A stretch of DNA of 64,000 nucleotides from an uncultured Candidatus Peribacteria bacterium (GCA_964541635.1 CAZIQM010000001.1:5852-69851), one strand, 5' to 3'. Positions 8,488-31,856 are shown, numbered from the stretch's first letter. Numbers and translations: made by a program. The notes: generated by a model from the letters alone, not told the origin.

Positions 8488-8597
8488 GACGTTTCCCCTT
8501 TTTATAAGGCTGTTCTTGCACGGTCCCGCCCGTGGTGTAAATGTACTATGAATATAATAAAACATTAATATATATTGTCAATGTATGGATTTTGGCT

Positions 8598-19494: not shown

Positions 19495-21384
19495 ATGAAA
19501 CGGGCGCTGCTCCTGTCGGCGTGTTCGATCGTCCTCGCCTCGTGCGCGGCAGGTGAAGATACGGCGCGGCCCCCGCTCGCGCCGCTCCCGGACCACGCGA
19601 GCGCCCAACCCGACTGGCACGCGATGACCGGTGCCATCGTCCGTGCCGAGATGCACTCGACCGTCGGCGTGCTACTCGACGATTTCCCCGCGGCCTCCCG
19701 CGAACGCCTGGAACGCGAACTGCTCGCCGAGCCCGCGTCGTTCTGGATCGAGCGCGCGAAAACGCAGATCAGGCTCACGAGCATGCGACTCGATTTCCGC
19801 AACGGGTTTTACCCCAAGGGCACCAAGTGGCAATTGCCGCTCCCGCCGGAATCGACGTGGACGGTGACGATCGACGGGCAGGTGGAGAAGAAAACGATCG
19901 ACGGGCACGCCGTCATGGCCGTGCCGTACTCCGTGACGACGTCGATCCTGACCGACGAAGCGTCGCCCGGGATCTCGGAGCCGTCGCTCGCGGCGGTCGG
20001 CGGCACGTGGCGCGAACCGTTCGTCTTCCCCGTCGATCCCCTCTTCGTGTTCCAGCGCACGGGCTACGCCTGCATCAACGAGGCGCAGTTCCCGCCCAAC
20101 AGCCACGACGCCGAGGAGTCGGATCTGTTCTACGACCACGGCTGCACGGTGGAGGCGCGGCTCTCGAACGTGGGCTGCCACCAAACCGCAATGCCGACGA
20201 TGTCGTGCGTGCAGGCGTTACAAAAGAACGTCGGGCGGGTCGAAACGGCCATGGTCTTCACGCGCGCGGCGTGGGATCCCGCGGTCGCGGACGTGCTCCG
20301 CTCCGGCACGGTCACGAACCCGGACGGGCCCGATTTGGAACCGGACCACGCGGAATTCCGCAAACACCGCTTCACCTACCGGTACATCCCGGCGAATTCG
20401 TGCACGATCGAAGAGCGGTGCGTCGGCGGACCCGGATGGCGCAGGCTCCTCATGTTCCCGACGGCCGACCTTAACCGCGGCATGAAGGACCTGAACATCG
20501 GCTGGGTGGATTACTTCCACAAGGACGGCGGTTCGACGCTCTCGGAGCACGGCATGTTCGAACTCAGCGAGTGCCACGGGCACTACCACTTCTCGCACTA
20601 CGGCACGTTCTCCCTCGACGGCGAACCGCAACTGACGCGCAAGAACGGCTTCTGCATGCAGCCCACGCAGCGCATCTGGAACAACGAAGCGAGCCCGCTC
20701 CACCACCCGTTCGTCGATTGCGAGGAGCAGGGCGTGAGCCCGGGGTGGATCGACGAGTACAAGATGGGCCTCGAGTGCCAGTGGCTCGACGTCACCGACG
20801 TGCGGCCCGCGACGAAGAAGCTCTCGTTCGTCAGCAACCCCGACGACATGCTCTGCGAAGGAACGCTCAAGAAAGACGCAGACGGAAAGCAGCTCTTCAA
20901 ACCGAGCGCGTTCACGACCACCAAGGGCACGCCGGTGGACCGGCCCGTTTGCGACGAATTCCCCGGCTGGAAGGACAACAACGGCTCCGCGTACGACGTG
21001 ACGGTGCCCGTCGCGGGCGAGAGCTACGTGACGCAATCCTGCGGGATCGGGCACGACGGCCTCCTGCGCAACTGCGGCTTCACGAACGAGAAAGACCTCC
21101 TCGGGTGCGACGTGCCGGGAAAGACGATGGTCGCCGACTGCACGACCGACGCCGCGACGCCGCAGGTCGTGCGCTTCTGCGAAGGGAGCCGCGCCCTGGG
21201 CCACGGCATTCCCTGCACGGAGGGCGACGCGCTCGCGACGGCGGTGGTCGACGGCTCCGCGCGCGTGACCTTCACCTGCCCCGCCGCGCGCGACGCCGTG
21301 GAAATCGGCGGAGTGTACGGGATGATGCACGCTCCGCTTTTCGTGGGAGACGAATCCGAAACGGTGACGTGCACGGTGCGGTGA
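19495..21384 (+). CDS. lipoprotein with a lysyl-oxidase-like copper amine oxidase domain
   Basis: Lipobox LLLSAC. ECHGHYHFSHYG compares with the LOX motif CHQHYHSMDEFSHY. RKNGFCMQP, SPGWIDEYK and ECQWLDVTDV compare with LOX HKASFCLED, SPGCYDTY and CQWIDITDV. Confidence 0.75.
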   Translation: MKRALLLSACSIVLASCAAGEDTARPPLAPLPDHASAQPDWHAMTGAIVRAEMHSTVGVLLDDFPAASRERLERELLAEPASFWIERAKTQIRLTSMRLDFRNGFYPKGTKWQLPLPPESTWTVTIDGQVEKKTIDGHAVMAVPYSVTTSILTDEASPGISEPSLAAVGGTWREPFVFPVDPLFVFQRTGYACINEAQFPPNSHDAEESDLFYDHGCTVEARLSNVGCHQTAMPTMSCVQALQKNVGRVETAMVFTRAAWDPAVADVLRSGTVTNPDGPDLEPDHAEFRKHRFTYRYIPANSCTIEERCVGGPGWRRLLMFPTADLNRGMKDLNIGWVDYFHKDGGSTLSEHGMFELSECHGHYHFSHYGTFSLDGEPQLTRKNGFCMQPTQRIWNNEASPLHHPFVDCEEQGVSPGWIDEYKMGLECQWLDVTDVRPATKKLSFVSNPDDMLCEGTLKKDADGKQLFKPSAFTTTKGTPVDRPVCDEFPGWKDNNGSAYDVTVPVAGESYVTQSCGIGHDGLLRNCGFTNEKDLLGCDVPGKTMVADCTTDAATPQVVRFCEGSRALGHGIPCTEGDALATAVVDGSARVTFTCPAARDAVEIGGVYGMMHAPLFVGDESETVTCTVR

Positions 21385-21400
21385 CGCCTTGCCGCGACCC

Positions 21401-21637
21401 TCACTTCCCCCACCGCCACCGCGGCTTCTCGCCCGTGTACCAACACAGCAGGAGCAGCGCCCCCGTGGAGAGGCCGACGTCTGCGAGGAAATACCACGGC
21501 TGCGTTTCGGTGTCCCAGCGGATGAACGCGCCCACGAAGAAGACGGTCCACACGAGCATCGCGAACCATCCTTGCCACGTCGAAGGATACCATCCGTACC
21601 CGTACCGTTTCGCCTTGAACCATACGTGTCGCGCCAT
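21401..21637 (-). CDS. small Trp-rich membrane protein (78 aa)
   Basis: Two TM helices and protein-like composition. Confidence 0.55.
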   Translation of the reverse strand: MARHVWFKAKRYGYGWYPSTWQGWFAMLVWTVFFVGAFIRWDTETQPWYFLADVGLSTGALLLLCWYTGEKPRWRWGK

Positions 21638-21726
21638 GAGAATGAGTATATGAAATCCGTCCTCACAAGCATAGGCGCCGCGCTCGGCATCCCGACGGGA
21701 TGGATCGGCGGCCGGCTCGCCCGCAT

Positions 21727-22026
21727 ATGAACGCGCTGCTGCTCCGCCATCGGATCGTCCTCGCCTACGTCGTCGTCTGCACGGCGCTGTACGTCGCGGG
21801 CGTCATCGACTGTTGGGGCGTCCACGACGGATTCCTGTGCGGGTACGACTACCTCCGCGCCGCGTTCTTCCTGACCTGCCCGGCGTCGTACGGATTGCTC
21901 GTCCTGACGCAGGCGCTCCCCGGCGTCCCGCTGTCGGACCACGCCTTCGCCGCGGGCGCCGTCGCGATCAACGCCCTGTTGCTCGGGGGCGCCATCGAGT
22001 GGCTCAAGCGGCTCCGCTCCCGATGA
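21727..22026 (+). CDS. small membrane protein
   Basis: MNALLLRHRIVLAYVVVCTALYVAG... with 3 hydrophobic helices. The start is uncertain (21700 or 21727). Confidence 0.5.
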   Translation: MNALLLRHRIVLAYVVVCTALYVAGVIDCWGVHDGFLCGYDYLRAAFFLTCPASYGLLVLTQALPGVPLSDHAFAAGAVAINALLLGGAIEWLKRLRSR

Positions 22027-22176
22027 CCCTTTTTTCGACCGGGGAAAGGCGTACCATGTCGCGCCGGCACCCGGTTTTTCACAACGCACCGATGCAGGGA
22101 GCACCCTGGCACTCTCCACGTTTTTCGGGAGGGGGCCAGCGCCCCTCCCTACACCTCTCCGCGAAAGGAATCTCGT

Positions 22177-22545
22177 ATGACGACCGCCGTCGCTGCGGAC
22201 CCCGGGACGATCACGCTCACGTGGCCGGGGGTAGAACATTCGCTCGAACTCAGTGAACGCGAGGCCGGCATCCATGCCGCGCTGAACGTCATCAAGCCCA
22301 ACGGGCGGCAAAAGCTCGAGTTCGATCTCCCGCCCAACGTCTCGCTCGACCACGTCCGCAAGGCATGGAAAGAGCAAGGCGAGAAATGGGAAGACCTCTA
22401 CGTCCTCAAGGGCGCTCCCGTCTTCCTCGCCGTCCGGGTGATCCGCTTGGATCCCCACGGCGGCATCTTCTGGTTCGTCCACCACGTGGACAACGCGCCG
22501 GACGACCGATGCTTCTTCACGCCGATCGGCACGAAGATCCCGTAA
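22177..22545 (+). CDS. hypothetical protein (122 aa)
   Basis: Protein-like ORF followed by a clean hairpin terminator. Confidence 0.65.
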   Translation: MTTAVAADPGTITLTWPGVEHSLELSEREAGIHAALNVIKPNGRQKLEFDLPPNVSLDHVRKAWKEQGEKWEDLYVLKGAPVFLAVRVIRLDPHGGIFWFVHHVDNAPDDRCFFTPIGTKIP

Positions 22546-22583
22546 TGACCTCACCCGCGCAGCGGGTACGAGGGGCACACACC

Positions 22584-22608
22584 GGAGGCAAACCACGCGT
22601 TTGCCTCC
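22584..22608 (+). terminator. intrinsic terminator
   Basis: GGAGGCAAAC-cacgc-GTTTGCCTCC, followed by ATTTCCACGTTTT. Confidence 0.7.
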
Positions 22609-22636
22609 ATTTCCACGTTTTCACGACCAGGGATAT

Positions 22637-22664
22637 TTGACATATGTAATAAATGTATTAATAT
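22637..22664 (+). promoter_or_regulatory. near-consensus sigma70-type promoter
   Basis: TTGACA-N16-TAATAT in an AT-rich context. Confidence 0.6.
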
Positions 22665-22667
22665 GCA

Positions 22668-22864
22668 CGCAGTTGTTCTCTCTCATTCGCACGTTGCAGC
22701 CGACACCGGCGCGGATTCCATCGAGATCCACGCTTCGCTCGTCGACCAGGGGTCGACCAGCACAACAATACGAACGAGAACGATTACGGGATCGATGAGG
22801 CCCGCGCCCGTCAGAACGTATCTGACAATGACCCCGCACGTACCAACGTGCGGGGTTCTTTTTT
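22668..22864 (+). ncRNA. candidate structured small RNA (~200 nt, rod-like, 6S-like shape), class unassigned
   Basis: It lies between a consensus promoter and a strong terminator (ACCCCGCACG-taccaa-CGTGCGGGGT-TCTTTTTT). No credible ORF is present. Long-range pairing: GGCGCGG/CCGCGCC, CATCGA/TCGATG, CATT/AATG, and an apical GTCGACC-agg-GGTCGAC. Confidence 0.45.
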
Positions 22865-22875
22865 GCTTTGAATAC

Positions 22876-23394
22876 TTAACTCTTCCATCCTTCCGACGGC
22901 TCATCAAATTGTCTTTTCGTGTAGTTCCCGCCGATTTCCTTCGAAGCAATTTGCGACAACTTGTGAAGCTGCTGATCCAGGGAGCGCTGCCCCCGGAAAT
23001 CAGCGATCTCAAACTCCGCCTCGAAGTCTTCCCCGGTCACCGTGTTCCATGCAGTAACGGCGGCGGCGGACGCAACTTCCCGAAGGGCGTTTTCGACTTC
23101 CGTACGCAGGTGCGGATCGCGTTCCCACTGGCTCAGCTCAGGCGATTGTAGAACGTTCTCCGGCCGCAGTTGTAGCCACCAATCCGGATTTCCTTGATCC
23201 GATAATACGGAAATAAGTTTTTCTTTTATTTTCTCCTGCAAAGCAATCGCGGGCTCGATGCCTCGTTCGCGCATTATCGCAACGTGATCGGGCTTTGCCA
23301 CGACGTCTTCCGTTGCTTGCAACGGCTCAATCGCTACTCCCCGCTCGAAGAGAGCCGGAAATACGGTCTGTAGCTTCATAATAATATTATACAA
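22876..23394 (-). CDS. hypothetical protein (172 aa)
   Basis: Protein-like ORF with intermediate GC. No family recognised. Confidence 0.6.
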   Translation of the reverse strand: MYNIIMKLQTVFPALFERGVAIEPLQATEDVVAKPDHVAIMRERGIEPAIALQEKIKEKLISVLSDQGNPDWWLQLRPENVLQSPELSQWERDPHLRTEVENALREVASAAAVTAWNTVTGEDFEAEFEIADFRGQRSLDQQLHKLSQIASKEIGGNYTKRQFDEPSEGWKS

Positions 23395-23438
23395 TAATTA
23401 CTGTATTTGATAAATACTTCAAATAAACGTTCAACCGC

Positions 23439-23840
23439 TTATTGGGCGGCGTTCGGGTTCATCCACGTGAGTCCCCATCCGTGGCCATCAAGGTCGTAGA
23501 ACGCACCCTGGTACATGAAACCGTGGTCTTCGAATTCGTGCGCCTGCGATCCCCCGGCGGCGATCGCCTTCTTCACCATCTCGTCGACTTCTTCCCGGCT
23601 CTCGCAGTTCACGCTCATGAGCACGTTGCATGCCTTTTCGGGCTCGATGTACGGCCGGGGCGAGATCTGCGCGAACTGTTCCTTCGACCCGAGCATGAGG
23701 GACGTCTTGTCGTTCAACACCACGCAGCACGCGGAACCGTCGGCGAACCGCGGATCCCGCGCGAACCCGACCGCCTCGTAGAACGCCAACGACTTCGCCG
23801 GATCGGCGACGGGGAGGGTGATGAACATGCTCGTGACCAT
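23439..23840 (-). CDS. VOC/glyoxalase-bleomycin-resistance family protein
   Basis: MFITLPVADPAKSLAFYEAVGF...FYDLDGHGWGLTWMNP is typical of the paired beta-alpha-beta-beta-beta fold. Confidence 0.8.
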   Translation of the reverse strand: MVTSMFITLPVADPAKSLAFYEAVGFARDPRFADGSACCVVLNDKTSLMLGSKEQFAQISPRPYIEPEKACNVLMSVNCESREEVDEMVKKAIAAGGSQAHEFEDHGFMYQGAFYDLDGHGWGLTWMNPNAAQ

Positions 23841-23888
23841 GGGATGAGGGGAAAGGATTATTAGGATAATTGGCGACGAGTGATGGTT

Positions 23889-24911
23889 TTAGCATCCGAT
23901 AAGGTGCCTCTCTACTTTATCTATTTCTTTCATAGAATAAAACTTTGTGGGAAGCTTTATGAATTCAGATTGCAGAGGATCCATGTTAATTAATGAGAAC
24001 CAATTATGATCAATCAGCATCACATCACAGTAAGGTGCGAAGTGCGAAATAATATCAATATCAGCAAAATCACTACCCTCTGGAAGACTGTTATATAAAT
24101 CTTTGGGAGAAAGTTTGCGAGCACGTTCCGACCACATTTTTAAACTGAGTGCTACACATGGAACATGATTCTTTATGTTAGGATCTCTCAAAATGTAACA
24201 AACAGTCCTAAGACGGTTGAGTACAGGAATATGTGAGATTTCTTCACATCTCAATATTTCATCGATGAGCTGAATATATTCATCAGGCACCTCTTCAATG
24301 TCTTTGTGTGGAATTCCGAAAACTGAATATGAAATATAATGAATCACAGCTCGTTCAATCACCCTTGTGTAGCCCGAAAATTCTTCATCGATGTAATCAT
24401 CGAAACTTTTTCCTTCTTCCTTTGCACTGATCCATCGTTTTGTTAACTCAGACAAATTCCGCTCGGCCTCTTTCCTCGTCTGTCGAATCCCTTCTATGTA
24501 ACGACTTTCCGCAGAAATATTTATATGTTTGTAAGCTTTGGTAACATCTTTAAAATCAATATTTTTAACGGTCTTTTGAAAAATTTGCTTTTGTAAATAT
24601 TCCTTAAACTGAAGAGTAAATATACGACTCGAATTCAAAAATTCTTTTTCACAAAGTTCATTGCAAACGTTCAATATTGGATCCGCTAATGCACCCGCAA
24701 GCGCAGACTCTTCACGATGGGATCTGGAAAAGGGAATGATTATTTTCCCTTCATCTTTCTTAGATTTTATTAGCACATATATATGCCTCCATTTCTTAAG
24801 CCATTCTTCTTTGTCTGTTAATGACATTTTTCCTCGTATCAGATGTGGGTTTTGAGCTTTTGCGAAATTACTCATCCACCCCTGATCTAGATAGATAACC
24901 TGCGATTCCAT
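23889..24911 (-). CDS. AT-rich orphan protein (340 aa); a PIN-like nuclease fold is only a weak guess
   Basis: GC is roughly 35-40% versus >60% in the surroundings. N-terminal VIYLDQGW and C-terminal DFADIDIISHFAPYCDVMLIDHNW resemble the acidic strands of PIN-like domains. ATG at 24911. Confidence 0.7.
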   Translation of the reverse strand: MESQVIYLDQGWMSNFAKAQNPHLIRGKMSLTDKEEWLKKWRHIYVLIKSKKDEGKIIIPFSRSHREESALAGALADPILNVCNELCEKEFLNSSRIFTLQFKEYLQKQIFQKTVKNIDFKDVTKAYKHINISAESRYIEGIRQTRKEAERNLSELTKRWISAKEEGKSFDDYIDEEFSGYTRVIERAVIHYISYSVFGIPHKDIEEVPDEYIQLIDEILRCEEISHIPVLNRLRTVCYILRDPNIKNHVPCVALSLKMWSERARKLSPKDLYNSLPEGSDFADIDIISHFAPYCDVMLIDHNWFSLINMDPLQSEFIKLPTKFYSMKEIDKVERHLIGC

Positions 24912-24947
24912 CACTAGATATTAGCAGCACTGAGAAGCTATCAGGAT

Positions 24948-25003
24948 TGGCTGGGGAGGAGGGATTCGACTCCCCAATGCACGAACGGATGATAGCCTCC
25001 CCT
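24948..25003 (-). other. tRNA-like minihelix (acceptor stem + T arm + G + CCA) lacking D and anticodon arms
   Basis: The minus strand reads AGGGGAG-(21 nt)-GGGGA-GTCGAAT-CCCTC-CTCCCCA-G-CCA, with canonical T-loop and acceptor spacing. It lies 36 nt upstream of the AT-rich ORF. Confidence 0.35.
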
Positions 25004-25145
25004 ATTGTAGCGCAAAGCCCGTTTTTCCGTGAGCTGAAGCCCAAAGACGTGATTCTTTGACATTCGGAGGTTTCGAAACCGCATTAAACCATTCAAAGCA
25101 CTAATTTGCCGCTTCTTTGCCATGTTTGAGGTACCCCACAAATAG

Positions 25146-25174
25146 TTGACAAGATTATATTACTATGACATGAT
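25146..25174 (+). promoter_or_regulatory. candidate promoter of giant surface protein gene 1
   Basis: TTGACA-N17-CATGAT, followed by a CT-rich leader. Confidence 0.4.
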
Positions 25175-25205
25175 CACCCCCTTTTTGTCACTCCTCCTCT
25201 TCCCT

Positions 25206-28200
25206 ATGGGTACGCGCACTGTATCCGTCCTCTCGCTCCTCGCGCTGTCGCTGAACGCGACCGCCGCGATGGCCGCCGAACCCGCGCAAGCGCCGTTCGG
25301 TTCGCGCGACATGGACTCGCAGGTGGACCTCTCGCAGGCCTACCTGCCCGAAGCGGTCTACGTCACGAGCGTGGCGGCGAACGTCACGGACACCTCCGTG
25401 GCGGGATCGTTCACGGTGGAGAACACGGAAGACGTCCTCGTCACCGGCCTGCAGTACCGCTTGGAACTGCGCGGCACCGGGAAGCTCGACGGACTCCCCT
25501 ACGCGATCGACGTGGTGCGCGCGTCGTTGGCGTTGGCCCCCCAGGAAAGCAAGAAACTCCTCTTCGCGACCGCCCTCCCGAACGTCCCGGCCGGCCGCTA
25601 TGACCTGCGCGTGCAGCTCCTGACCGCCAAGGGCCGCGCCCTCGGTTGGCAGGACACGCCGGTGGTCGTCGCCGCCGAGCGCGGCGCGACGGATTTCGTC
25701 ACGGTCGTGCCGGGCACGATCGGCATCGCCGCGTACGGCGACGAACTCCTGCCCCCGCTCTCGGGCCCCAACGTCGATCCCTCCGGCGCCATGACCCTGC
25801 GCGCCACGGCGATCAACGACACCGACCACGCCATCCGCGTGACGCCGGTCATCGACCTCTACGACTTCAACGCCGCGCGCGTCGGGCTCGGCAGCCTGGA
25901 ATACTCCGACCTCAACGTCGCCGCGGGCGAAACGGTGAAGCTCGACCTCCCGGTCACGGCCGACGCCGTCCCGGGCACCTACATGGCCCACCTCACGCTC
26001 AAGGACGCCGACACCGGCGAGACCCTCTCGAGCATCGCCCAGTACCGCTACGTGGTGAAAGGCGAGGACGCCGACATCGTCTCGGTCCGCATCGAGAACA
26101 TGGGCACGAAGGCAGGCGACTGGGCCTACGGCACGGTCGACATGGCCGGCGCCGCCGACGCCCTCACGACCACCGTCGCCACGCTCCGCGTGCAGCTGAC
26201 GGACGACAAGGGCACGGTCGGCTCGATCGACGTCCCGGGCATCACGCTCGCCGACTCGATCCTCTCCGCCAAGATCCGCATCCCGCTCTCGCGCGACCTC
26301 GTGGGCGCCCCGAGCGTGGACGCGAGCCTCCTCAGCGACTCCAACACGACCTACGACCACGTGACCTACGCCGGCACGCTGACGCCCGCGCAGCTCGCGG
26401 GCCTCACGCAGGACAAGGCGTTCAATAACTGGGTGGCCTGGCACGGCCTCTCCCGCATCGCCCTCTTCGCCTTCATCGCGATGGCCATGGGCTACGCGCT
26501 CTTCGCGGTCGCGTCGCGCATGCGCGCTTCGATCGCCTTCGCGCGCGCCGCGACGGCGGCGTTCCTCCTCGTCGCGTTCGTCGGCAACGTCGGTTCCGCG
26601 TTCGCGGCCGGCAGCGGCGGCATCGAGACCCTCACGCCGGTCAACGGCAGCGCGGTCTTCGCCCCGCTCGGCAACCGCCCGATCATCGCGCTGTTCGTGA
26701 ACAGCCCGGTGCACGGCCAGGCCAACAACTTCTGCAACCGCCAGATCCAGCTCAGCTACCGCCTGGAATACGGCGTGTGCGAGAACGAAATCGCCTACGC
26801 CCGCGTCGTCGGACGCGTCACGCGCAACGGCGGCCTCATCAGCGCCTACGACGTCCCCGGAACGGCCTGGGACACCGTGCACAACCGCACGTACCAGAGC
26901 CAGTTCTGCAACAACCACTTCTGCTTCCAGGAGGAGAACTTCAGCGGCATGGTCGACCTCACGAACATCGTGGACCAGAACGCCAACACCGCCACGCTCC
27001 AGCTCCTCGCCAAGTGGGGCAAGAACCTCTCGATGCCCGACGCGAGCTTCGACCGCACCGACCCGTACATCAACCTCGGCTGGGCCCACGCGTTGAACAT
27101 CCACCTGCAGTGCACGCCGCCGCAGCTGAACGTCACCAAGACCGTCCAGTCCGGCTCGGCCACGCCCGGCAGCACCGTGACCTACACGTTCGCCGTCACC
27201 AACGGCGGCCAGACGAACGCCCCGAACGTCACGCTCAACGACATCTTCCTGAACGGCAACACGCGCTACATGCCGTTCGAATACGTCGGCGCCAACGGCG
27301 CCACGTGCTCGTTCGACACCGGCGCGGTGCAGCTCTCCTGCACGCTCGGCGCGCTCACGCCCGGCCAAACGAAGACCTTCACGGCTTCGTTCCGCGTGCC
27401 GCAGAACCAACCGCAGCTGTGCGGCCAGACCGTGCGCAACCGCGCGGAGGTCCGCACGAACAACCAGTCGACGGGCTCCGCCAGCGCCGAAGCGCAGGTG
27501 AACGTCGTCTGCCCCCCGAGCTACGGCTGCGTGGAAGTCTTCAAGGAAGGCTTCACGTCCGACAACCAGCGCATCACGGGACCGCTCCCCTCCTTCACCT
27601 TCAAGCTCGATAACCAGATCACGACGACGAGCGACCAGAACGGCTTCGCCCGCTTCGAGAACGTCCAGCCCGGCACGCACTCCGTGTCGGAAATCGCCCA
27701 AAGCGGTTGGACGAACTTCCTCATCACGCCCCAAAACGGCTTCGTGACGGTCCAGGCCGGCTCGAACTGCGCAGGCGTGACGGTGAAAAACCGCCAGGAC
27801 CCGCAGGACGCCGACCTCCAGCTCGCCAAGACGGGCCCGCAGACGGTCGTCCGCGGTTCCACCGCCACCTACGCGCTCACGGTGAAGAACAACGGCCCCG
27901 TGTCCGCCACGAACACCATCGTGCGCGACACGATCCCGGCCGGCACGTCGTTCAACGCCGCGCAGTCGGACACGCGCTGCTCGATGCAGGGCAACAGCGT
28001 CGCCTGCAACGTCGGCACGCTCACGCCGGGCCAAACGGTCACGGTGTCCCTCGTGCTCAACGTCGCGAACCCCGATCCCGCCTCGTGCGCCCCGGGCACC
28101 ATCGTGAACCAAGCCGCCGCGCTCAGCGACCGCGTGGACAACAACCTCGCGAACAACCAATCGTCCTTCACCACGCAGGCAACGTGCCCGCAGCCGCAGG

Positions 28201-31200: not shown

Positions 31201-31856
31201 TGTACCGCGTCGAAGTCGACGTCGACGACGACGCCGACGGCACGCTCTACAACACGGCCGAGGCGCGCGGCGTCTCCGCGACGGACCGCACAGACGTCGA
31301 TGACAACGGCAACCACAACGGCAACGCGGAAATCGACCTGACCAAGACCGCGAGCACGTCGGAAGTGTTCCCCGGCGGCATCATCGATTACACGGTGCGC
31401 GTCCGCAACACGGGCGACGACCCGATCGAGAACCTCACCGTCACCGACCAGCTCCCGGCCGACGTGATCGTCATCGACGACGGCGACGCGGACAGCCGCA
31501 GCGGCCGCCGCCTGGAATGGGAAATCGACGAACTCGATGACGGCGACGAGGAAATCTTCCGCTACCGCGTCTCCGTGCCGACCTACATGGTCGCCGGCCA
31601 GATCATCCGCAACAACGTGTGCGTCGAAGCCGACGACCTCGACAACGACGAATGCGAAAGCGTGACCGTCAGCGTCCTGGGCATGATCCCGAAGACGGGT
31701 GCTAAGGCGCCGGAGCACGACACGCACCTGACGCCGGTCGCCGCGCACGACGCGCCGAGCGACGGGACCCTCCCCTTCTTCGGCCTCATCGCCCTCGCGG
31801 GCGCCGCCACGGGCGCGGGCCTCGGATTCGGCCGGAAGATGCTGTTTGGCATCTAA
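25206..31856 (+). CDS. giant cell-surface protein (2216 aa) with CARDB-like N-terminal domains, an internal TM pair, about 9 DUF11 repeats, 4 SpaA/Cna-B-type domains and a C-terminal sortase-like sorting signal
   Basis: Signal peptide MGTRTVSVLSLLALSLNATAAMA. Repeats of the form L.KTGP..V.RG....Y.L.V.NNGP. GC(I/V)E..KEGF...G.H.V.E...GWT modules. C-terminus IPKTG...FFGLIALAGAATGAGLGFGRK. Confidence 0.9.
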   Translation: MGTRTVSVLSLLALSLNATAAMAAEPAQAPFGSRDMDSQVDLSQAYLPEAVYVTSVAANVTDTSVAGSFTVENTEDVLVTGLQYRLELRGTGKLDGLPYAIDVVRASLALAPQESKKLLFATALPNVPAGRYDLRVQLLTAKGRALGWQDTPVVVAAERGATDFVTVVPGTIGIAAYGDELLPPLSGPNVDPSGAMTLRATAINDTDHAIRVTPVIDLYDFNAARVGLGSLEYSDLNVAAGETVKLDLPVTADAVPGTYMAHLTLKDADTGETLSSIAQYRYVVKGEDADIVSVRIENMGTKAGDWAYGTVDMAGAADALTTTVATLRVQLTDDKGTVGSIDVPGITLADSILSAKIRIPLSRDLVGAPSVDASLLSDSNTTYDHVTYAGTLTPAQLAGLTQDKAFNNWVAWHGLSRIALFAFIAMAMGYALFAVASRMRASIAFARAATAAFLLVAFVGNVGSAFAAGSGGIETLTPVNGSAVFAPLGNRPIIALFVNSPVHGQANNFCNRQIQLSYRLEYGVCENEIAYARVVGRVTRNGGLISAYDVPGTAWDTVHNRTYQSQFCNNHFCFQEENFSGMVDLTNIVDQNANTATLQLLAKWGKNLSMPDASFDRTDPYINLGWAHALNIHLQCTPPQLNVTKTVQSGSATPGSTVTYTFAVTNGGQTNAPNVTLNDIFLNGNTRYMPFEYVGANGATCSFDTGAVQLSCTLGALTPGQTKTFTASFRVPQNQPQLCGQTVRNRAEVRTNNQSTGSASAEAQVNVVCPPSYGCVEVFKEGFTSDNQRITGPLPSFTFKLDNQITTTSDQNGFARFENVQPGTHSVSEIAQSGWTNFLITPQNGFVTVQAGSNCAGVTVKNRQDPQDADLQLAKTGPQTVVRGSTATYALTVKNNGPVSATNTIVRDTIPAGTSFNAAQSDTRCSMQGNSVACNVGTLTPGQTVTVSLVLNVANPDPASCAPGTIVNQAAALSDRVDNNLANNQSSFTTQATCPQPQVGCIEILKEGFTSDNQRITGALPAFSFKLDGNQTVQTDALGRATLQNVTPGQHTVTELTASGWTNFLVTPQNGVVNVQAGTACAGVTFKNRQDAHDADLSLVKTGPASVTRGTTATYALAAKNNGPTAAPNTIVRDELPAGTTFNAAQSDNRCTLQGNSIVCNIGTLAIGQTITLSIALNVPSSYVGATLVNRAAVLSDLQDPNLDNNQSVFTSQVAIVQPQVGCIDVFKEGFDAGGSRLGTVPPFTFILDGSGALNVHTNSAGSARFVNVPVGQHTVSEVTASGWTLFNTTPTGGVVNVAAGSTCAGVVFKNRQQPLNADVSIVKSGPATAVRGGNLTYSLTVTNNGPAVAQNVMVDDQLPSGLGTPVVSGAGCTVNNGLVHCVIGPMNVNDQRIITINVPVPSQQTCQPGSVTNTATVTSQNDSQAGNNASSVTTQLQCPTQQQADLLVQKTGPASVVRGQNAQYTILMKNNGPAASPNTIVGDPLPAGTTFVAAQSDNRCQLSGNAVFCNLGTMALNQQITFTLTLNVTAQAQCQAGTLLNRASVLGDLQDPFLDNNQSTFTSQVTCPSPTTADVSVAKTGPSTVVRGTNLSYGITVSNLGPATASGVVLSDAVPAGLTLVSSGSGCLLNNGVVTCQIGALPTAQTRTYSFVYSTGSAQNCAAGTATNVANVTSTSTDPNTANNQSTVTTQITCPSSTGKDVQIAKTGPSVVTRGENFTYTLTVTNNGPATATGVVVTDVLPSGLTFVSTSAECQNLNGVVTCQAGTIGAAQSRAFSVTVVAPAVSSCTQASVTNTATVTSSGTDNNVGNNSSSLTTQVNCPNAQLGCIDVIKETYDTNGNVLTPVTQFTFNLDGSRTAVNDGQGRARFENVTLGQHTVTENLPSGWTQLLVTPSGGLVNVTAGTCVAVSFKNKQTIQNSGSFSITKTDHETEVEPGDTLEYEIRVRNNSSVRVTNVTVTDTLPDEVEFQDASPNESSENGRVIRWENQTFEANEEKLYRVEVDVDDDADGTLYNTAEARGVSATDRTDVDDNGNHNGNAEIDLTKTASTSEVFPGGIIDYTVRVRNTGDDPIENLTVTDQLPADVIVIDDGDADSRSGRRLEWEIDELDDGDEEIFRYRVSVPTYMVAGQIIRNNVCVEADDLDNDECESVTVSVLGMIPKTGAKAPEHDTHLTPVAAHDAPSDGTLPFFGLIALAGAATGAGLGFGRKMLFGI

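Follow-up and report, generated by a model that had tools for sequence, protein, structure and literature searches.

The 64,000-nt stretch of Peribacteria DNA analysed here (the window) contains an intergenic region at 22546-22875, which separates a gene for a 122-aa protein (22177-22545, plus strand) from a gene for a 167-aa protein (22876-23379, minus strand). Does an independent RNA gene exist between the two, and if so, of which kind is it? The first-pass annotation had proposed a stand-alone promoter-to-terminator unit encoding a rod-shaped, possibly 6S-like RNA of ~200 nt. In our view, to which we assign a probability of roughly 0.6 based on sequence comparison and folding, positions 22637-22864 correspond to an independent gene on the plus strand for a non-coding RNA of ~192 nt which matches no described family. 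The stand-alone unit is supported by its geometry, by a conserved block, by the lack of a conserved ORF and by the convergent neighbours, while the rod and the 6S-like character were not supported.

Promoter, terminator and conserved block

The unit begins with a near-consensus promoter of the sigma-70 type, which consists of the -35 hexamer TTGACA (22637-22642), an AT-rich spacer of 16 nt (22643-22658), the -10 hexamer TAATAT (22659-22664) and a discriminator of 6 nt (22665-22670), all on the plus strand. It had been listed among the best promoter matches of the window, and the counts are in line with this: the pattern TTGACA-N15-18-TANNAT occurs twice in the 64 kb, with 0.04 matches expected, and the site at 22637-22664 is one of the two best matches within 20000-26000. 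The tRNA genes and the giant surface-protein genes of the window also have sigma-70-like promoters, the strongest of them with AT-rich spacers, and thus the promoter type of the RNA unit is native to the organism. An exact TTGACA-N16-TAnnAT is found at one other site in the window besides the RNA promoter. The strongest promoter-like sites, at 8554-8581 (minus strand), 23413-23386 (minus strand) and 25146-25174 (plus strand), have very AT-rich spacers in a genome with ~65% G+C.

At the other end, the strong intrinsic terminator of the first reading is present (22830-22864, plus strand). It comprises a G+C-rich stem of 12 pairs at 22830-22857 followed by CTTTTTT, with the T-run ending at 22864; on the complementary strand no U-run follows the hairpin. 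Transcription would start approximately at A22671, the +1 position that we infer, and would end in the U-run 22858-22864, resulting in a predicted transcript of ~192 nt (22671-22864, plus strand).

For comparison, the RNA region was aligned in five lineages: that of the window, L006/L007, L004/L005, L002, and a fifth lineage which is split across L010 and a 4678-nt contig of the run X15. Among 5.8 billion proteins, only four clusters were homologous to the upstream 122-aa protein, and the contigs of these clusters carry the RNA region. The identity of this region to the window is 97.8% over 232 nt in L006/L007, 89.6% in L004/L005 and 82.9% in L002, and contigs from public runs show the same variants as the lineage loci. 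Searches for RNA runs yielded just two, X7 and X22, which are of unknown type and look like low-coverage DNA: their contigs of ~150 nt, with a depth of 2-3, cover coding and non-coding DNA alike.

Across the lineages the promoter hexamers are changed at only 2 of 48 positions. Both changes are in L004, which has TTGACG instead of TTGACA and TATTAT instead of TAATAT, the other four lineages being identical. In spacer and discriminator, 32 of 88 positions (36%) are changed, while their lengths of 16 nt and 6 nt are invariant. When compared to the window, the 16-nt spacer differs at one position in L006, five in L004, six in L002 and eight in L010; in the discriminator, between one and five of the six positions differ between lineages. 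Since hexamers and spacing are kept while the spacer drifts, the promoter behaves like a functional one.

In all lineages, AGTTGTTC at A22671 marks the start of the conserved block, which extends to the last T of the T-run. Identity of the predicted transcript to that of the window is 98.5% in L006, 92.4% in L004 and 87.7% in L002. For L004 and L002, the corresponding values are 75.6% and 80.5% for the upstream gene and 83.0% and 72.4% for the glyoxalase gene, and the third codon positions of the flanking genes show 63-74% identity. Thus, boundaries and identities suggest that the selected block coincides with the predicted plus-strand transcript, and by this comparison the RNA sequence is under purifying selection relative to its surroundings.

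Beyond these lineages, the RNA was absent at the syntenic locus of Peribacteria with a neighbour protein of 33-46% identity, as analysed by nhmmer and with our covariance model R1. These loci were reached by way of the glyoxalase gene and of remote homologues of the upstream gene; they harbour other genes instead (DUF1761, DUF4256 and AT-rich orphans). No match was obtained when the GTDB representative genomes and the JGI metagenomes were scanned with an exact two-anchor pattern. As far as can be seen from these searches, the RNA appears to be restricted to a single genus-level clade of Peribacteria from wastewater.

Predicted fold of the RNA

The sequence 22670-22864 was predicted to fold with -76.7 kcal/mol (z = -5.1). 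Most of the z-score is supplied by the terminator; for the plus-strand body alone, z was -1.6 to -1.9 in the window. This dominance of the terminator would fit a locus without dedicated function, in which a chance or leftover promoter is accompanied by a hairpin merely terminating neighbouring genes. We consider such an origin distinctly improbable, because conservation of the body far exceeds that of third codon positions and of the adjacent spacer, because the promoter geometry is kept despite the 36% change in spacer and discriminator, and because the upstream gene has its own hairpin. The latter is a terminator-like 9-bp hairpin at 22584-22608 (plus strand), which is separate from the RNA. 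Downstream of the 122-aa gene, the region 22570-22616 contains the motif GAGGGGCAC, this hairpin and then a T-poor tail; motif and hairpin are kept, with compensatory changes in the stem, in the RNA-less loci L011, L012 and L024 (33-46% protein identity). Since the upstream gene has its own conserved hairpin, the RNA is not the 3' end of its neighbour.

According to the minimum free energy (MFE) structure and the RNAalifold consensus, which agree in this respect, a helix P1 encloses the hairpins P2 to P4, and P5, P6 and the terminator follow. In the resulting 5' domain of 115 nt, the CU-rich 5' end of the RNA (22671-22680) would pair with GAGAACGAUU at 22776-22785, both strands of P1 being supported by the consensus and by pair probabilities (0.92-0.98; 0.68 for the terminal A-U pair). 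P2 (22693-22704, 4 bp) is a weak hairpin with an alternative partner in the MFE structure (22763-22766), and is invariant in sequence. P3 (22708-22734) has 9 bp and two bulges, and in the X15 lineage a GCC insertion falls in its loop. P4 (22737-22761) corresponds to GTCGACC-agg-GGTCGAC with an extension of 3 bp, and its core of 5 bp is invariant. Two short hairpins of the consensus fold, P5 (22787-22804) and P6 (22810-22826), would be located between the 5' domain and the terminator, all elements being on the plus strand.

Several differences between the lineages are compatible with this fold. In P1 the pair U22679-A22777 is replaced by C-G in the X15 lineage, and in P6 the pair U22811-A22825 is replaced by C-G in L004, L002 and X15; both changes are compensatory. 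The terminator stem shows one compensatory change from U-A to C-G (L004) and two changes from C-G to U.G in relatives. In P3 the exchange of G22708 to A converts a G.U pair to A-U in L002, and in P5 the pair 22792/22800 is changed from U.G to U-A in L004 and X15. All five one-sided changes (at 22708, 22761, 22800, 22834 and 22837) are compatible with wobble pairing on the plus strand. Changes which disrupt the plus-strand fold sit at helix ends; in P4, the exchange of GG to AA at 22751-2 opens two apical pairs in L006 and L002.

In the five-sequence alignment, 97% of the paired cells can pair, when compared to 32-44% with slid partners. Two-sided changes were counted in three pairs, a value reached by 18 of 500 shuffles, and in four cells, a value reached by 1 of 500. 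These counts rest on five closely related sequences with ~3 events, and the key event in P1 is spread over two contigs (L010 and the 4678-nt contig of X15) that come from the same run. We regard the covariation support for the plus-strand fold as real but thin.

The first-pass annotation had suggested another structure, in which the 5' and the 3' half of the transcript pair to form an irregular rod. Its complementary words (CATT/AATG, ACGTT/AACGT, GGCGCGG/CCGCGCC and CATCGA/TCGATG) and the hairpin GTCGACC-agg-GGTCGAC were all found. The rod is nevertheless not the favoured fold: with its helices as a constraint the energy was -56.9 kcal/mol versus -76.6 kcal/mol for the MFE structure, a cost of ~20 kcal/mol, and the pair probability was ~0.01. 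Its long-range helices are invariant in the five lineages and thus show no covariation; since they never vary, the comparison neither supports nor contradicts the rod.

Closely linked to the rod was the comparison to 6S RNA, an open-promoter mimic that sequesters the RNA polymerase holoenzyme. The RNA unit resembles 6S RNA (Rfam RF00013 and relatives) in its length of ~190 nt, in having its own promoter, and in some self-complementarity between the 5' and 3' halves, the several complementary words being invariant in five lineages. Still, a 6S-like function is extremely improbable in our opinion. When the window was compared to Rfam (4227 families) at the gathering score, 6S was not matched; the region 22400-23500 and the homologues from L004 and L002 showed, at E <= 10, only terminator-shaped noise, with no 6S or related model and no other sRNA family among the matches. 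In the folds predicted in silico, the partner of the 5' end is located in the middle of the RNA (22776-85) and not at its 3' end. Unlike 6S RNA, the unit would thus have no end-to-end closing stem, and it lacks a central bubble in its favoured fold. The low stability and probability of the rod and its helices without covariation also argue against a 6S-like RNA. The intrinsic terminator at the end of the RNA unit, inside the conserved block, is a further difference from 6S RNA. A wider distribution would be expected of a housekeeping RNA, whereas this RNA is missing at the syntenic locus of distant Peribacteria, gave zero matches in the exact-pattern scans of the two large collections and, to judge from these loci and scans, does not appear to be conserved across the class.

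Coding potential, neighbouring genes and cargo

An ORF at 22663-23151 had been described as the only one between promoter and terminator and as lacking protein-like features. This ORF is present and extends across the terminator, and Pfam gave no match to it. It is not the only ORF, since further overlapping ones are located at 22601-22798 (plus strand), 22621-22839 (minus strand) and 22683-23012 (minus strand); no Pfam match was obtained for the ORFs of the region. The X15 lineage carries a 1-nt deletion at 22705 and the 3-nt insertion (GCC) after 22716, so that indels lie inside every candidate frame, and L004 has single-base insertions further along. Due to the indels in these two lineages, no frame survives.

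The region downstream of the terminator is informative with respect to a possible leader function. In all four lineages in which it is known, the gene after the terminator is in convergent orientation: the 167-aa orphan gene in the window, the glyoxalase gene in L006 and L002, and a gene for a 134-aa protein in L004 (continued in L040), the stop codon of which is 4 nt away from the terminator hairpin. This consistently convergent arrangement argues that the RNA is not a leader. A riboswitch or an attenuating 5' leader was therefore rejected as a candidate, with no gene on the same strand directly downstream in the four lineages.

Taken together with the coding readings, the locus could be a riboswitch-like 5' leader, a gene for a small protein or a type I toxin-antitoxin locus. 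With several stems enclosed by P1 and a terminator downstream, the fold does resemble an aptamer with its expression platform, and short ORFs are present on both strands. We nevertheless judge these possibilities very improbable: a co-directional gene is absent downstream in four lineages, no riboswitch model was matched, and all ORFs are broken by indels in X15 or L004. In addition, the TTG-ORF starting at 22694 shows approximately nine non-synonymous changes versus one synonymous change in L002 according to a codon-by-codon count by hand, and the minus-strand ORFs encode Arg-rich strings, which are not hydrophobic.

The convergent gene of the window belongs to a strain-variable cassette of 578 bp (22865-23442, minus strand), which abuts the T-run of the RNA and contains the 167-aa orphan gene 22876-23379. 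Strains which are 97-98% identical have 20 nt in place of this cassette. Its gene has an AT-rich promoter of its own (TTATCA-16-TATAAT, 23413-23386), and only two homologues of the protein were found (58-62% identity), neither in a related context and one following pth; thus, the 167-aa gene is unrelated cargo. Depending on the lineage, the T-run is followed by 20 nt, by 65 nt, by the 578-bp cassette, by the 134-aa gene or by more than 4.5 kb. On the other side, L006/L007 harbour a 1.2-kb insert with a gene for a 368-aa orphan protein between the upstream hairpin and the RNA promoter, left of 22633. Strains therefore differ by whole cassettes on either side of the RNA, and the comparison of loci identifies the segment from the 122-aa gene to the glyoxalase gene as a hot spot for cargo (22546-23442 in the window; L002, L004 with L040, L006, L011, L012, L024, L033 and L042).

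Further to the right, at 23889-25145, an AT-rich gene (34-40% G+C) encodes a 341-aa orphan protein and is absent in L011, L012, L015 and L024. In these four loci a distance of ~0.5-1 kb separates the glyoxalase gene from the giant gene. In strain L006, which is 97% identical, the right flank is entirely different and lacks the giant gene.

Given this setting, it must be considered that the module is the remnant or the boundary of a mobile or integrative element, such as an attachment site or a palindrome-associated element, with hairpins acting at the DNA level and a conservation reflecting a function in recombination. Strain-level insertions and deletions have their break points at either edge of the 232-bp module (22633 and 22864), the locus is a hot spot for cargo, and the module contains a long imperfect palindrome. 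However, all five lineages carry the module at one and the same locus, and no second copy was found: in the window and 42 related loci, blastn, nhmmer and the covariance model R1 revealed no paralogues beyond the orthologues, so that one copy, always at the same locus, is present in 64 kb plus ~234 kb of related loci. Phage and plasmid collections yielded only chance matches of 25-35 nt. When read by eye, the junctions showed no terminal inverted repeats or target duplications; none of the window genes checked near the locus gave an integrase or transposase family; and the conserved promoter geometry would be left unexplained. For these reasons we consider an origin from a mobile element improbable, and prefer the RNA gene.

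For the upstream neighbour, no Pfam match was found, as was also the case for the 167-aa protein, and the PDB contained no sequence match to the 122-aa protein. The latter was modelled confidently by AlphaFold (pLDDT 86, pTM 0.80) with the topology beta4-alpha-beta4. Matches of this fold in the PDB were weak (E 0.05-0.3, TM about 0.3); the best ones were PUR-alpha, the trypanosome guide-RNA-binding proteins MRP1/MRP2, and LEF-3, which we take to be Whirly/PUR-type binders of single-stranded nucleic acid. The modelled 122-aa protein may thus weakly resemble PUR/Whirly-type binders of single-stranded nucleic acid, which we mention as a lead only.

Minus strand and possible function

Folding of the reverse complement gave a result which is not accounted for by an RNA acting from the plus strand only. 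For the body on the minus strand, z was -4.2 to -4.4 in the window and -2.5 to -4.7 in four homologues, while the plus-strand body without the terminator reached -1.0 to -2.9 in the homologues, marginally better than shuffles. The better folding of the body on the minus strand is unexplained. Its stability is due to a helix of ~20 bp (22677-97 with 22762-83), in which 5-6 G.U pairs correspond to C.A mismatches on the plus strand.

Hence the selected structure could be located on the minus strand, or both strands could matter. Read-through transcripts of the convergent cargo, which has no own U-tract terminator, would then carry a stable antisense fold, and the plus-strand RNA would act in cis by pairing with these transcripts or by collision of the polymerases, shielding the upstream core genes. 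Apart from the z-scores and the helix 22677-22697/22762-22783 with G.U pairs present there only, the changes at 22690, 22762, 22769 and 22751-2 leave minus-strand pairing intact or strengthen it; the GG to AA exchange at 22751-2 keeps the apex of P4 paired on this strand only. The downstream genes, where known, are all convergent, with their ends 4-65 nt from the hairpin, which would also fit. The conserved block, however, contains neither a promoter nor a U-tract terminator for the minus strand, and its boundaries match the plus-strand transcript. In X15 the changes at 22682 and 22777 result in two adjacent C.A mismatches in the minus-strand helix, although they include the compensatory pair in P1 on the plus strand, and the five one-sided changes listed above (22708, 22761, 22800, 22834, 22837) are tolerated on the plus strand only. 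Disruptive changes are about as many as consistent ones in the minus-strand model, as tallied by hand from the pair table. A selected minus-strand or two-strand structure is therefore unlikely in our estimation, though it is the main alternative to the plus-strand gene.

A specific version of this idea, which we regard as quite unlikely and mention as a speculation, is that this hot spot of cargo insertion in a CPR genome harbours an 'insulator' RNA gene which works through both strands. The strongly transcribed plus-strand RNA would pair with read-through from the downstream terminator-less cassette, or its transcription would collide with it; selection would consequently act on the hairpins of both strands, and the neighbouring 122-aa protein might take part. 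Such a gene would be comparable to cis-encoded antisense RNAs of the CopA/CopT, RNAI/RNAII or Sok/hok type, which also have a strong promoter facing convergent transcription, stable hairpins possible on both strands, and a location in accessory, variable DNA. Unlike in those systems, there is no toxin ORF or replication gene opposite the RNA, the convergent gene differs from lineage to lineage, and the minus-strand transcript is only hypothetical.

The independent plus-strand gene most probably serves as an accessory riboregulator, with an sRNA which would act by base pairing or protein binding; this mode of action is inferred, as are transcription, the exact ends and the fold. In its organization it is similar to stand-alone genes for trans-encoded sRNAs of the GlmY/GlmZ or RsaE type: a unit of ~190 nt from a sigma-70 promoter to a Rho-independent terminator, located between protein genes, with no conserved ORF, with conservation above the surroundings, and with several stem-loops and a terminator hairpin with a U-tail. 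It differs from the named sRNA families in the lack of similarity at the level of sequence or covariance model, in its CPR host and in its distribution, which is limited to the genus level. Our verdict is that the locus probably represents a new orphan sRNA family of an ordinary kind in an unusual host.

To our knowledge, hardly any regulatory RNAs have been charted in bacteria of the candidate phyla radiation, and a full-text literature search revealed no paper pairing 'Peribacteria' with 'small RNA'. If this is a conserved sRNA gene in a symbiont-type genome of ~1 Mb, it would mean that genome reduction has not put an end to the retention and exchange of accessory riboregulators. The unit of ~230 bp is a concrete, cloneable candidate for functional work. 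As the RNA is a lineage-restricted orphan with a candidate function only, its general importance is modest for now.

With respect to targets, a crude RNAduplex scan of 113 start regions in the window gave no signal above shuffled controls. A perfect complement of 15 nt to the RNA positions 22797-22811 was detected at 31809-31823 (blastn-short, E 0.011), inside the 3' end of the giant surface-protein gene 1; it may be due to chance in a G+C-rich genome. We also observed that many start codons in the window, for example those at 2735, 14926, 25206, 32014 and 40428, are preceded by CU-rich leaders of the CCTCC/CTTCC type, which are not Shine-Dalgarno-like. The 5' end of the RNA (UUCUCUCUCAUUC) resembles these leaders and, in the predicted fold, would be sequestered by GAGAACGA in P1.
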